DNA of 64,000 nt, from the NCBI GenBank assembly GCA_963702895.1, contig OY969767.1:1728001-1792000 (forward strand). The letters are read 5' to 3'. This document shows positions 1-5,208 of the stretch, in pieces. The DNA is from an uncultured Elusimicrobia bacterium (lineage in GTDB: Bacteria > Elusimicrobiota > Elusimicrobia > 2-01-FULL-59-12). The notes under the pieces were generated by a model that saw only the letters and a program-made list of their open reading frames with translations, had not been told where the DNA came from and did not search any database. Every line of letters begins with the position of its first letter. The stretch's first letter is position 1. A program made the translations under genes and the position numbers.

Positions 1-3000
1 GCCGGCGGTGGAGGCGTCGGAGGCGGGATTTGCTTCACCTTCCGACCCGGCCCCGCGCACGGGGCTCCGTAATTGATCGCCGCGGGGAGCTTCCAGCGTT
101 TTTCCCCCGCCGATAAGAATCGCCAGAGCAAAGCGCAGCGGGGAAAAGACTCGTGCCAACGCCAGGCGCATGTCGCTCAGGCCGCTCAGCGAAGGAATCA
201 TTCCGACTTCAATCTTCGCGGGATCCGACTTTTTCAAGATCCGGACAAAACCGATGGCGGACCCGCGAATTTCATTCGCCTTCCAATTGGCGCCAAAGAA
301 AGGTCGACGCCCGTTCTTTGCGCCGGCTCCCGCAACGCCTTCCATAATCTTCTGAAAATCGCCCAGATTCTGGCTGGCCCCGCCGACCAGCACGCCATCA
401 ACGTCCTGCTGGCGCATGATTCCTTCGATGTTCTCCGGCTTGACGCTCCCGCCATACAGGATGCGAATCGTGCCTGCGACCTGAGCACCGTACAGCGATT
501 CAATTGTTCCTCTAATAAAGTTCGCCATGTCTTGAATGTCGTCTTCGCTCGCGATTCGCCCTGTGCCGATGGCCCAAATCGGCTCATAGGCAATGATGAG
601 TTCAGCCGCATCCTCGGGAGAAATCTCGGCGAGGCCCTCTTGGAGCTGTTGACGGATCCACTCTTTTGTCTTCCCTTTGTCTCGTTTATCCAGATCCTCA
701 CCGACGGCGAGTATCTTCGTTGGGAAACCTTTCTTGCTCGCCGCGCGAAGCTGAGCGTTGACTCTCTCATCATTGTCGCTCAGATCCATCCGGGTTTCGG
801 AATGGCCGACCAGGACACCTGTGGCCCCCCTTGCCAGGACATCGTCCGCTGATACCTGACCCGTTTTCGCGCCCGGCTTCGGCGTTATCCGTTGAGCGAT
901 GAGACCGACATGTCCAGGCCAGCTCAGCAGGCGGCTTTGCAGGGCGTAGCGCACGCGGTAGAGGTCGTTAGCCTCTTCCAAGCGATTGGGCGTCCGCGCA
1001 CCTCCGAGATGCGCTGTGGCCATGATGAAGCTTTCAACAAAAACAGCCGCAAAAACAGCCACCGCCGCGTAATCGAAAGCGCCCATCCTCGCCCAATCCA
1101 TGTGTCCCAAATGAATCCCTGTCGCGACGGCCAGAACCAGCCAAAAAACAGGGAATATTCCGGCCAGCACAACCGTACGCCAGGCGGTTGGCTCTTGTCG
1201 AAGCCCGGGCACTTCAACGAAGGATTCATTCGGGGAAACCACGCGTTTGGTTGGGCTGTATCCCGCGAGTTTCGCAAAGAATTCTGTGCCGATCTCTTCC
1301 AGCCAGGACGCCGGCAATGCGACGGCGCCCCAAAACCCGCGCACCGGGCTGCGAAGTCTGTCGCCAAACCCTGTGCTCGCCGCCGGGCGGGCGGCGGTGT
1401 CGCCGGTCGCGGGGGCCATGGTGCGGACGCCGGTACCGCCACGGGTCGCGACGATAAGATCAGCGAGGCGTGAAATATCGTCGCTCCTGTCTCGTTTCTT
1501 GATAATCACTCCTAATGCTTCGAGGTAGAAGGAAAGGTGTTCCAATCCCACCCGCTGGATGAAGGCCTTTCCTTCCTCGGTGAGCAAATCTTTTCCCGCT
1601 GGGGATTCCAACCTTGCCAAGTCCCGCCAAATAGCGTTTTCTTCATCACGAACTTCCGATTCACGATCGCGCATCGCGTCACGGCGGTGGCCCAGCTCAT
1701 GTCCGAGAATAAGCAACAGTAATGATTCGGCAATGGCTTTGGCGCTTTCTGAAGCCGTCGGTGCGAACGCGGCTTTCAACGCCTCCAAGACCACCTCGTT
1801 GATCACCAGCTTGGTCGGTATTCCTTCCTTGCCAGGCTCAATATAGGCCGCGCTGACGCTGTAGCGCGGGGCCACGTGAAGCTCCACTGCGCGCACTCCC
1901 ATCGAGATCACTTCTAGCGCTTTCGTGCCGAACGGTAACGCGTCCCAATATTCTTTCAGCGCTTGATTAAGCGCCTTCCGGAAATCTTCGTGTAGATTCC
2001 AGCGCTGTACTCCTTCAGGCCGCGGTCCTTTACGCCGTGCCAATTTAAGACCGCCTGTATAAGAAGGAGGGTTGATGTTTAATCCGGTGTCCACCGACTT
2101 AGCTTTTTGCCCGCCTCCGAACGTCCGCACGCTGCCGGCGGCAACCGTCCTTCCACCCCGGCGGAACAGTGGCCGGAACCAATTGTTTAGCCACGGTAGA
2201 TTCGCCTTGACTGCCACGGATTCTTCACTAAAGTCCGGGCCGGGACCGCTCGCCAGGGCCTGCGGAGGGAGCTGGAGGTCCCGCGCGAGGTCTTCTATGT
2301 TCGCATGCTCCCCCTTCATGCGGGCTTCGTAGAGCTGGTGATAGTCCTCCGAGATCTCGTCCACGTAGGGGGTGATGACGACGTATCCCACGCCCGCCTT
2401 CTTGAACTCGCGGATCATGCCGGCGGTGTGGAAACCTCCGGCCACCAACACAACAGTATCGGTGTAACGGGGTAACGGGGTAACGGGGTAACGGCTTTGT
2501 CGTGACTCCGACACGCCGGCACTCCGATACTCCGACACGGGGCTGCGAAGCAGCGCAAGCGTGTTCTTCGCCAGCGGCTCGTCCCGCATCAGGGCGACGG
2601 CGTAAAAGTCGATGGCGGACTTCAGAACCTCTTCTATTTCAGCAAGGCGTCCCGCGTCCTGCGTTTCGCGTCCTGCGTCCTGCGTCCCGCGTCCCGCGTC
2701 CTGCTTCTTGTCGTTCAGATTCTGCACCGGATCCTTGACGCGGGACTCGGGACTCGGGACACGGGACTCAAGTCGCAACAACTGTTGCGTGATCTCCACA
2801 AAGGCCGGAAGGCGCTGCGCCACGTAGCGGACTTCTTCCAGCGTGGTCTCCTGCCGGAGAAGCTTACTCAGGAAGCTCAGGGAATGGTCGATCTCCGCGA
2901 GGTTCTGTACGAGCGCAACTTCCTTCTCGTCCTGGACGGAGGTCTTGGCGATCTCCAGCTTTCGCTTGAGAAGTTCCTCGGCAGAACGGACATCATAGGC

Positions 3001-3687
3001 TTCCTGCCGGTCCAGACGCTTCAAGCCGTAGGGGTAATGTTCTTTCTTCAGGATGGCAAGCTTCCTGCCGATCCCGTCGAGACTGTTTTTGAGCTGATGC
3101 CGGCTCTGGAGCGTCCCTTTATAGAGCTCCCGGTTAAGCTTGTAATAGTCGGGTTCATCCACGCCGAAAAGCCTGTGCCCCTCGCCGCGCAGGATGGAGA
3201 ACGCCTCGTCGCCGGACATTTCGCCTTTGCTCAGGAAGTAGTCCACGAGCCTGGTTTTGAGCTTGCCGGACGGGTAGTTGGCGAGGATGCTCGTGTCATA
3301 GTCTCCGCTTAGGCCTTCCACGGCCACCCGGCCGGAGACGATGTTTTTGTCATAGAGATAATCCAGAATTTTGACGATGCGCTTTTGGGTGGGGTAATGG
3401 AGGTGGAGATCCTGAATTAAGATGACTGTATCGGCGTATCGGCGTGTCGGCGTGCCGGCGTCACGGCTTGGGTGTGACTCCGTTACTCCGATACTCCGAT
3501 ACTCCGATACTGGAGCTGGCAGCCAGTAGTCCGTAACAGAGGCGATCTTCGGCGAAAGCGAAATCTGGCTGACGATTGAGGGAACGGCGGCGGCGTGGGA
3601 AGGACTGGGGAGCGGAATCGACGTGAGGACCAGCGCCGCCGATATCAAAGTGGATAAAACTTTTCGGGTCTGTTTAATCGGTTCCAT
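1..3687 (-). CDS. Giant multidomain exported/membrane protein, runs off the left edge (>1229 aa): signal peptide, N-terminal IQDLH..VEG..RD..GGFH domain, HELGH metallopeptidase motif, TM hairpin, circularly permuted triosephosphate isomerase domain
   Basis: ATG at 3687 preceded by GGAGG. Manual translation gives MEPIKQTRKVLSTLISAALVLTSIP.. and no stop in the segments read. The track lists no terminated ORF in this frame, and plus-strand ORFs 73-852, 892-1473 and 2785-3312 are its codon-aligned antisense shadows. Motifs GHSETR, AYEPIWAIGTG, YGGSVKPEN, LVGGAS, GANWKAN. Confidence 0.9.
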   Translation of the reverse strand, partial: MEPIKQTRKVLSTLISAALVLTSIPLPSPSHAAAVPSIVSQISLSPKIASVTDYWLPAPVSEYRSIGVTESHPSRDAGTPTRRYADTVILIQDLHLHYPTQKRIVKILDYLYDKNIVSGRVAVEGLSGDYDTSILANYPSGKLKTRLVDYFLSKGEMSGDEAFSILRGEGHRLFGVDEPDYYKLNRELYKGTLQSRHQLKNSLDGIGRKLAILKKEHYPYGLKRLDRQEAYDVRSAEELLKRKLEIAKTSVQDEKEVALVQNLAEIDHSLSFLSKLLRQETTLEEVRYVAQRLPAFVEITQQLLRLESRVPSPESRVKDPVQNLNDKKQDAGRGTQDAGRETQDAGRLAEIEEVLKSAIDFYAVALMRDEPLAKNTLALLRSPVSEYRSAGVSESRQSRYPVTPLPRYTDTVVLVAGGFHTAGMIREFKKAGVGYVVITPYVDEISEDYHQLYEARMKGEHANIEDLARDLQLPPQALASGPGPDFSEESVAVKANLPWLNNWFRPLFRRGGRTVAAGSVRTFGGGQKAKSVDTGLNINPPSYTGGLKLARRKGPRPEGVQRWNLHEDFRKALNQALKEYWDALPFGTKALEVISMGVRAVELHVAPRYSVSAAYIEPGKEGIPTKLVINEVVLEALKAAFAPTASESAKAIAESLLLLILGHELGHRRDAMRDRESEVRDEENAIWRDLARLESPAGKDLLTEEGKAFIQRVGLEHLSFYLEALGVIIKKRDRSDDISRLADLIVATRGGTGVRTMAPATGDTAARPAASTGFGDRLRSPVRGFWGAVALPASWLEEIGTEFFAKLAGYSPTKRVVSPNESFVEVPGLRQEPTAWRTVVLAGIFPVFWLVLAVATGIHLGHMDWARMGAFDYAAVAVFAAVFVESFIMATAHLGGARTPNRLEEANDLYRVRYALQSRLLSWPGHVGLIAQRITPKPGAKTGQVSADDVLARGATGVLVGHSETRMDLSDNDERVNAQLRAASKKGFPTKILAVGEDLDKRDKGKTKEWIRQQLQEGLAEISPEDAAELIIAYEPIWAIGTGRIASEDDIQDMANFIRGTIESLYGAQVAGTIRILYGGSVKPENIEGIMRQQDVDGVLVGGASQNLGDFQKIMEGVAGAGAKNGRRPFFGANWKANEIRGSAIGFVRILKKSDPAKIEVGMIPSLSGLSDMRLALARVFSPLRFALAILIGGGKTLEAPRGDQLRSPVRGAGSEGEANPASDASTAG
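2455..2540. repeat. Inverted octamer tandem-repeat element, in frame in the giant ORF
   Basis: GGTAACGG x4 facing CTCCGATA/CTCCGACA units; encodes PVSEYRSAGVSESRQSRYPVTPLPRYTD. Confidence 0.85.
2647..2770. repeat. Inverted heptamer tandem-repeat element, in frame in the giant ORF
   Basis: GCGTCC(C/T) array facing GGGAC(T/A)C array; encodes ESRVPSPESRV..QDAGRGTQDAGRETQDAGR. Confidence 0.85.
3428..3512. repeat. Inverted octamer tandem-repeat element, in frame in the giant ORF
   Basis: GTATCGGC/GTGTCGGC units facing CTCCGATA units; encodes PVSEYRSIGVTESHPSRDAGTPTRRYAD. Confidence 0.85.
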
Positions 3688-3820
3688 TACCAGCCTCCAG
3701 GAAGAATGTATTAGCCCCACTAGATTAGCGGAATCCACGCGAATTTTGAATAGAACGAAGGGCTAAATAATACTCGCCAATAGTCCCAGACGACCATTGG
3801 GCCCAGTATTCCCCTTGATT

Positions 3821-5208
3821 GAGTTACCATCAAAAGTGCTGGAAATAGGTTTTAAGGCAAGGAAGGATTTGCCTTAGGAAATAGAAACGGCGTACCCTTT
3901 CGTTGAAACACACAAACCTGTCCGTTCGAGCGGACAATAAACGAAAAGGAGACGCCGTTATGGAAACCATTGTAAACGAGAAAGGGACTCAGCACAAAGG
4001 CGAGAGCATGGTGGATTATCTGGCCCGTGAAGGAGCGCGCAAGATGCTGGTGGAGGCCCTGGAAGAAGAAGTGACGATGTATTTAGAGCGTCGGCGCTAT
4101 GAACGGGCGAAGAATCTGGAGAAAGGCTATCGCAACGGAACCCGGGAGCGGAAGGTGACAGTTTTGGGAGCAGGTTTAAAGCTCTCGGTGCCGCAAGTCG
4201 ACGGGGGCGAGTTTGAGTCGAGCATCTTGCGTCCGTACCAGCGGCGAACCGAGGGTGTCGAGGAGTTATTCCGGCGGCTGTACCTGGAGGGGCTCTCGAG
4301 CCGGGACTTTGAGCCGGCGATGCGAGCACTGATCGGGGATGGAGCCACCTTATCAGCCAGCACGATCCTGCGTTTATCGGCGAAGTTTCAATCGGACCTG
4401 GCCACCTTCAGCCGCCGGGACTTATCCGAAACGCGTTACGCCTATGTCTGGGCGGACGGCGTGTACTTGAAGGCCGGGCTGGAGAAAGAGAATACGGCGC
4501 TTTTAGTGTTGGTTGGCGTGAATGCCGATGGGAAGAAAGAGCTGATGGCTCTGATGGAAGGCTACCGGGAGAGCCGGGATTCCTGGAAGGAAATCTGGCG
4601 AGGGGTGGCGGAGCGTGGAATGCCCGCTCCGCTCTTGGTTATCGGCGATGGGATGGGTGGGCTCTGGGAGGCGGTGGCGGAGGTCTATCCGACCGCCAAA
4701 GATCAACGGTGCTGGAAGCACAAGATGCGCAACGTCGTGGATAAAGTGCCGAAGGCCAAGCAAGAGGAGGTGCTCAACCGTCTGCGCGTGGCGTATCAGG
4801 CGGAGCGTCGAGAAGACGCGGAGAATCACCTGGCCTTGTTAGCCGAGGACCTGGAGATTCGCTACCCGAAGGCGGCGGCTTGTATCCGGAAGGACCATGA
4901 CGCCTTGCTGCGCTACTTCGACTTTCCGAAGGAGCACTGGGTGCATTTAAAGACGAGCAATCCGATCGAGTCGGTCTTCGCGGGGGTCCGATTGCGAACT
5001 CGCGTTGTGCGGCGGTTTCAGAAATCTCGCACGGGAGTAGCGTTCGTCTACAAAATCATTGAACGCCTGGCGCAATTCTGGAAGCCGATTGAGAAGCCGG
5101 AATTGGTGATGGGATTATTCGTCGAACGAGAGAAGCTGGAGGTAGCGGCCTAAGAGACTTTCGACCAAAGGGGCGCCGATCGATTTCCATCACATTTGAC
5201 TAAAGCTC
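3821..5208 (+). mobile_element. IS256-family insertion sequence
   Basis: Imperfect 26-bp terminal IRs (GAGTTACCATCAAAAGTGCTGGAAAT vs revcomp GAGCTTTAGTCAAATGTGATGGAAAT); flanking direct repeat CTTGATT at 3814-3820 and 5209-5215. Confidence 0.9.
3960..5153 (+). CDS. IS256-family DDE transposase
   Basis: YLEGLSSRDF, YVWADGVY, IGDG, QRCWKHKMRN, KTSNPIES motifs; SD AAGGAG before ATG 3960. Confidence 0.95.
   Translation: METIVNEKGTQHKGESMVDYLAREGARKMLVEALEEEVTMYLERRRYERAKNLEKGYRNGTRERKVTVLGAGLKLSVPQVDGGEFESSILRPYQRRTEGVEELFRRLYLEGLSSRDFEPAMRALIGDGATLSASTILRLSAKFQSDLATFSRRDLSETRYAYVWADGVYLKAGLEKENTALLVLVGVNADGKKELMALMEGYRESRDSWKEIWRGVAERGMPAPLLVIGDGMGGLWEAVAEVYPTAKDQRCWKHKMRNVVDKVPKAKQEEVLNRLRVAYQAERREDAENHLALLAEDLEIRYPKAAACIRKDHDALLRYFDFPKEHWVHLKTSNPIESVFAGVRLRTRVVRRFQKSRTGVAFVYKIIERLAQFWKPIEKPELVMGLFVEREKLEVAA

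Follow-up and report, generated by a model that had tools for sequence, protein, structure and literature searches.

The window analysed here, a stretch of 64,000 nucleotides from an Elusimicrobiota genome, contains at its left edge a triosephosphate isomerase (TPI) domain which, as read from its sequence and those of its relatives, is a real and conserved circular permutant of TPI with intact active-site residues. In this domain (window 145–912, minus strand), the units run from beta3 to alpha8, followed by a linker and then by beta1 to alpha2; the canonical order of strands from beta1 to beta8 is absent, the beta1-alpha2 part coming after alpha8. Structure modelling suggests that the domain is probably a complete TPI (beta/alpha)8 barrel, permuted circularly by two beta-alpha units. 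TPI, a glycolytic and near-perfect enzyme, has given the TIM-barrel fold its name and ranks among the most conserved enzymes. The motif order described in an earlier note on this sequence, and the places given there for the catalytic His, Glu and Lys, were found to be exact, all of them lying in one open minus-strand frame (Table 1).

Table 1. Features of the host gene and its TPI domain, in window positions; residues are numbered from the longest start, and TPI residue names follow canonical numbering.
Feature	Window	Strand	Residues	Basis
Large multidomain gene, window part	1..3687	-		start and frame analysis, Pfam
Signal-peptide-like hydrophobic segment, preceded by a basic N-region	3604..3663	-	26-45	hydropathy
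N-terminal leader domain, no Pfam match	2239..3588	-		genome frame comparison
HExxH motif	1687..1701	-	680-684	sequence; helical region, no Pfam match
Hydrophobic hairpin, two predicted membrane segments	1000..1188	-	851-880, 883-913	Kyte-Doolittle
TPI beta3-alpha8	340..912	-	943-1133	Pfam, alignment
Connector from old C-terminus to old N-terminus	310..339	-	1134-1143	model and sequence
Relocated TPI beta1-alpha1-beta2-alpha2	145..309	-	1144-1198	profile, models
Gln64	892..894	-		
Thr75	862..864	-	Thr959	
His95	802..804	-	H979	
Glu97	796..798	-	E981	
Arg98, replaced by Thr	793..795	-		
Glu165	583..585	-	E1052	
Asn10	286..288	-	N1151	
Lys12	280..282	-	K1153	
Met14, replaced by Ala	277..279	-		
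Loop 6			1050-1060	
Loop 7, YGGS			1095-1098	
Loop 8, GGAS			1119-1122	

The core of the domain is recognized without difficulty. Positions 54–243 of the 245 in the Pfam TIM model cover the beta3-alpha8 part with E 4e-60 and 203.8 bits (gathering threshold 20.1); this is one stretch only, and not the pair of swapped matches that had been expected. Scanned by itself, the tail region (window 1–330) gave no Pfam family, and in a phmmer comparison with the Thermotoga TPI the second piece (TPI 4–52, placed after the core) scores 1.7 bits. A 56-position profile of the TPI N-terminus, built from up to 106 canonical sequences, has a single match in the 1964-aa frame, at aa 1144–1194 (profile positions 2–54, 53 of 56 positions; 13.5 bits, E 3.7e-6 for a single protein). 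Thus, the NWK segment is found after the core only, as had been proposed, with no other beta1-alpha2 unit in the frame. Against all genome frames of at least 40 aa, the same match ranks second behind the real tpiA and is weak (E 0.063), and a plain pairwise test of the tail is marginal, its score being reached by 9 of 300 shuffles. Since the profile score of the tail is modest, the case rests on homologues and models rather than on the score. Among genome frames besides tpiA and the tail itself, no source of a beta1-alpha2 unit acting in trans was found under E 3. The TIGR00419 model (cut-off 130.6 bits) gives 104.9 bits for the whole protein and 110.2 for the domain, compared with 184.5 for the genome's own tpiA; the moved part lies outside what such a collinear model is able to score. 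The best NCBIfam score, 192 bits, belongs to the PGK-TPI fusion model NF010569 and is far under its cut-off of 883. An ESM Atlas search returned TIM clusters only.

We aligned the query with 22 homologous permuted domains (23 rows), which bears out the proposal that the permutation is natural. The same breakpoints occur in all 23 sequences, the relatives being 29–44% identical to the query; mean identity of the rows to the query amounts to 26% for the tail and 40% for the core. Asn10, Lys12, His95, Ser96, Glu165, Tyr208 and Gly209-210 do not vary in any of the 23 rows; these counts are inflated by the choice of rows, made partly by TPI similarity and an NWK-like position. Loop 6 is unmodified in the query copy, which also retains Gln64, Thr75, Gly76 and Glu97, whereas in several relatives one of loops 6 and 8 is remodelled or Glu97 is replaced (E97A). 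Two residues set the family apart: Arg98, which 244 of 247 canonical sequences have, is present in none of the 23 permuted rows, and Met14 is kept in two of 23 vs. 238 of 247. Their family-wide loss suggests that the dimer interface has been remodelled. According to the accessible part of PMC12874384, Arg98 belongs to the fixed active-site network of TPI, the human M14A variant has robust activity and N10A none, and the kcat of an engineered monomeric TPI is 400-fold lower; in the corresponding part of PMC4664265, deletion of TPI loop 3 costs 3–4 orders of activity.

An AlphaFold2 model made with the 23 permuted rows and no canonical ones has pLDDT 91.9, pTM 0.89 and eight strands, supporting the closed eight-stranded barrel that had been anticipated from structure prediction; a run on the single sequence failed (pLDDT 45.5) and its model was set aside. 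The short linker of the earlier note does join the old ends, but its first half is modelled as an extension of helix 8, with the helix reaching aa 1138. Solved TPIs align to residues 14–223 of the model only, that is, to its first six units (1b9b, Z 24.9, rmsd 2.9, 207 aligned), because the aligner is sequential; unrelated whole barrels align over residues 28–282, covering all eight units. The de novo barrel 7uek (1–227) gave Z 14.1 and rmsd 3.5 over 200 aligned residues. A TPI-fold enzyme of another substrate, L-erythrulose-1-phosphate isomerase (11ef), gave Z 21.7.

A two-copy model, built without the upstream helix and together with three controls, scored 0.66 vs. 0.00 for the best control, with contacts agreeing by at least 97% between runs and pLDDT of at least 89; 20 of 30 solved homodimers attain the mark applied, as does 1 of 23 single chains. 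The best dimer contacts connect Thr959 (Thr75) with His979, Lys1153, Gln949, Glu981 and Asn1151 of the partner, which would place the relocated Asn and Lys in the same site as His95 and Glu97. This Thr75-centred network is the one described for TPI in the accessible part of PMC12874384. The dimer result may reflect recall of solved TPI dimers, and the barrel model likewise; as a model, the predicted dimer speaks of likeness, not of binding.

Among proteins of 1080–3437 aa, eight of 17 non-self matches are permuted and nine have the canonical order; two of the permuted proteins are named as Omnitrophota. When a profile of 11 permuted rows was searched against 1.84 billion representatives, 16 of the 150 proteins among the matches listed span the whole profile, namely the query, four profile members, ten further permuted proteins and P0023, which was left out because it consists of canonical TPIs in tandem; 131 of the remaining 134 match in two swapped pieces, as expected of canonical TPIs. 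Within the host phylum (401 genomes), the proteins that span the profile among the matches listed come from G000, G015 and G025, and G011 adds one, so that the permuted form appears to be patchy there. The three same-genus genomes, 73–89% complete, have a standalone TPI match only. A genome scan with one generic pattern gave 80 loci among the matches listed, of which 77 are canonical, one is permuted (L041, Omnitrophota) and two have no detectable NWK-type motif. None of the 174 pattern matches in a metagenome scan with the query is a relative.

Other sugar-phosphate enzymes accompany the permuted TPI in 14 of the 16 long homologues scanned, a count that leaves out L027–L029; the fused domains include PGK, GAPDH, enolase, FBPase, PFK, aldolase or phosphoglucomutase. 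There are also three candidate short permuted forms of 269–314 aa. P0138, a permuted TPI of 304 aa encoded on a short contig, is possibly a standalone form; it is the close sister (support 100) of the domain of L027 (G011:C160), a 2770-aa protein of a same-order genome. In a word search of proteins of 139–550 aa with the permuted alignment, the 120 matches listed all cover only 59–67% of the query; canonical TPIs dominate this result, which is uninformative as to standalone permuted forms.

The host gene exceeds the left edge of the window by 2156 bases, ending at G000:C1:1725844. Its probable start is the ATG at 3687 behind a GGAGG site, giving 1947 aa; residues are counted here from the longest start, the GTG at 3738 (1964 aa), and the protein comprises about 1950 aa overall. 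It runs from a signal-like start through the leader domain, the HExxH motif and the hydrophobic hairpin to the permuted TPI, followed by a GHMP-kinase domain and hydrophobic segments. The membrane hairpin reported in front of the TPI domain is indeed present, its two hydrophobic segments ending about 30 aa before beta3; hydropathy indicates two more such segments in the part of the gene beyond the window. The segment at aa 26–45 may be an export signal, and the HExxH motif a possible zinc-binding site. The leader domain is common to four other large ORFs (6682, 1536, 12935 and 1730 aa from stop to stop), which carry FBPase, PP2C, methyltransferase, LysM, SLT and glycosyltransferase domains that differ between ORFs; it also occurs in two ORFs of about 350 aa in this genome (leader loci L142–L147).

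Pfam GHMP_kinases_N matches aa 1404–1489, in the gene part beyond the window. The GHMP-kinase domain as a whole (aa ~1250–1780, L001:11399–12988, minus strand, outside the window) is divergent, with all three motifs recognizable, and its top ESM Atlas cluster (score 0.96), a hypothetical GHMP family, is 62% archaeal. No second copy was found in the genome frames, and a structure search returned no solved structure under E 0.1. The flanking genes are a Mutator-family transposase (Mutator/IS256, window 3903–5153, plus strand), located directly upstream and divergent, and a SRAP gene. Short in-frame repeats were observed at window 2460–2770, including a 9-mer at 2468–2494 and 7-mer-like runs near 2650–2770; in translation they match short segments of numerous other genome frames, which suggests a dispersed small repeat inside the coding sequence.

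Tandem arrangements among the relatives point to a possible origin. A large protein of a same-family genome (L024/P0003) contains two canonical TPIs in tandem, and tandem permuted units are present in P0004, P0022 and L028. In L026 (G054:C26), L028 (G015:C43) and L029 (G025:C8), a degenerate TPI-like barrel directly precedes a better conserved one, in canonical order in L026 and permuted in the other two. Canonical and permuted tandems form the series expected from duplication and trimming, and we infer that the permutant is probably the product of a TPI module that was duplicated in tandem and in frame and then trimmed. In a tree of 78 rows based on beta3-alpha8, the permuted label needs two changes; after 24 rows were dropped (the long branches L026, P0158, L028, L029 and P0023 together with redundant canonical rows), 21 permuted rows fall on one side of a branch (SH-aLRT 84, not starred). 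AU tests did not reject a grouping of the query with its own tpiA (p 0.105) or with the tandem pair of G008 (p 0.38). The trees allow one or two origins of the permuted form. A bolder scenario, somewhat short of an even chance in our judgement, is an old and fully active clade of permuted TPIs with an interface rebuilt without Arg98, born in Omnitrophota and Elusimicrobiota polyproteins, in which all stages of the permutation survive: canonical tandem, permuted tandem, single permuted unit and short near-standalone form. The query copy would then be the example with an intact site, in a membrane-tethered sugar-phosphate assembly line.

The same tandem proteins lend some colour to the view that the domain is an N-terminally truncated TPI followed by the decaying stub of a second tandem copy, with the barrel not completed. 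The weak score of the tail match in the genome-wide search, the AU result that does not reject the query as a relative of that tandem pair, and a loose alignment of the end of the upstream helix with TPI helix 2 would fit as well. We consider this very improbable, since it is largely refuted by conservation of the breakpoints and of the relocated Asn and Lys in the 23 sequences; in addition, the predicted structure closes the barrel, the dimer model folds (pLDDT 90) even though the upstream helix was left out, its tail forming part of the interface, and invariance of His95 and Glu165 would hardly be expected of a six-stranded barrel that lacks Lys12. The earlier note had treated a second-copy remnant as an outcome that would overturn its reading. 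It does not: the tail Asn and Lys are invariant and the frame has no other beta1-alpha2 unit, and, in light of the tandem series, a tandem remnant is the likely history of the permuted TPI, not its refutation. An assembly artefact or a chance order of motifs is hardly credible. No independent run covers the junction (one DNA run, share 0.06, gave scattered short pieces) and the same-genus genomes have only the standalone match, but the domain lies in one uninterrupted frame, 1972 codons long, the genome is a single contig that contains no N, core and tail are alike in GC3 (0.63 and 0.64), and the identical order is present in many unrelated records.

A closed permuted barrel could also have become weak or been repurposed, either as a monomeric or loosely paired triose- or tetrose-phosphate isomerase with altered specificity or as a sugar-phosphate sensor or scaffold for the GHMP kinase. 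The loss of Arg98 and Met14 across the family, the altered loops and E97A of some relatives, the patchy distribution, the housekeeping tpiA and the existence of TPI-fold isomerases with other substrates (11ef) agree with such a role; the query copy itself, however, has canonical loops 6, 7 and 8 as well as Gln64, Thr75, Gly76 and Glu97, its dimer model passes, and in relatives the domain is joined to enzymes that neighbour TPI in its pathway. We regard such a weaker or altered role as unlikely, though worth keeping in view, while TPI activity is what we would expect on balance.

Under the preferred reading of an active permuted TPI, the chain would enter the barrel at beta3, the short connector would join the old ends, and the chain would exit after alpha2. 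Two copies would pair via loops 1–4, with Thr75 of the partner holding Asn10 and Glu97; Lys12 and His95 would polarise the substrate, Glu165 would move the proton and loop 6 would close, interconverting DHAP and glyceraldehyde 3-phosphate. A separate canonical tpiA, which the earlier note had asked about, encodes 255 aa elsewhere in the genome (G000:C1, L002:1468–2235), and the permuted domain would therefore be an accessory copy, tethered to the membrane beside a GHMP kinase in a modular sugar-metabolism polyprotein. By a rough count, Lys and Arg residues number 4 and 5 on the flanks of the hairpin vs. one in its loop, with six after the last segment, and these positive-inside counts would probably place TPI and kinase on the cytoplasmic side. 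In contrast, a signal-like (cleaved) N-terminus together with the hairpin would put the TPI domain outside the cytoplasm. The same ambiguity of topology is met in the accessible text of a preprint on giant genes (bioRxiv 10.1101/2023.11.21.568195).

Distant TIM-barrel families are known to be related by natural permutation, and within TPI itself we found no report of a natural permutant in the full-text literature (at the level of titles and beginnings of abstracts, with most subscription journals outside the scope). One of the papers retrieved, PMC13105402, deals with designed barrels. The domain of about 260 aa with intact catalytic residues and the TpiA of the same genome would make effects of chain order and dimer interface comparable, and the tandem relatives offer a living series for the duplication-and-trimming model. 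The permutation also accounts for the truncated appearance of such domains when they are scored with collinear TPI profiles, a point that bears on metabolic reconstruction of these uncultured phyla.

A known natural case is that of transaldolase and class I aldolase, TIM barrels related by a permutation of two beta-alpha units (PMC2213659, accessible part); that one lies between two families and was seen by structure alignment, whereas the permutation described here lies within the TPI family, is visible in sequence and has tandem forms among the relatives. TPI is part of a fused glycolytic protein in the PGK-TPI fusion (NF010569) too, but in canonical order, and no PGK is present here. As described in the accessible part of the giant-protein preprint (bioRxiv 10.1101/2023.11.21.568195), giant proteins of Omnitrophota are membrane-associated and modular, with TPI, FBPase, aldolase and phosphoglucomutase domains; 'permut' is absent from its main text, supplements aside. 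The host protein resembles them in its membrane segments, its embedded metabolic domains (TPI, GHMP) and its uncertain topology; it differs in size (1947–1964 aa compared with a class of >10,000 aa) and in coming from Elusimicrobiota. Compared with canonical TpiA (EC 5.3.1.1, PF00121; Thermotoga maritima 1b9b), the permuted domain is about 40% identical over beta3-alpha8 and shares Asn10, Lys12, His95, Glu165, loops 6–8 and a modelled dimer through loops 1–4 with Thr75 of the partner; unlike TpiA, it starts at beta3 and ends after alpha2, has Thr for Arg98 and Ala for Met14, falls under the TIGR00419 cut-off and is embedded in a membrane protein of about 1950 aa.
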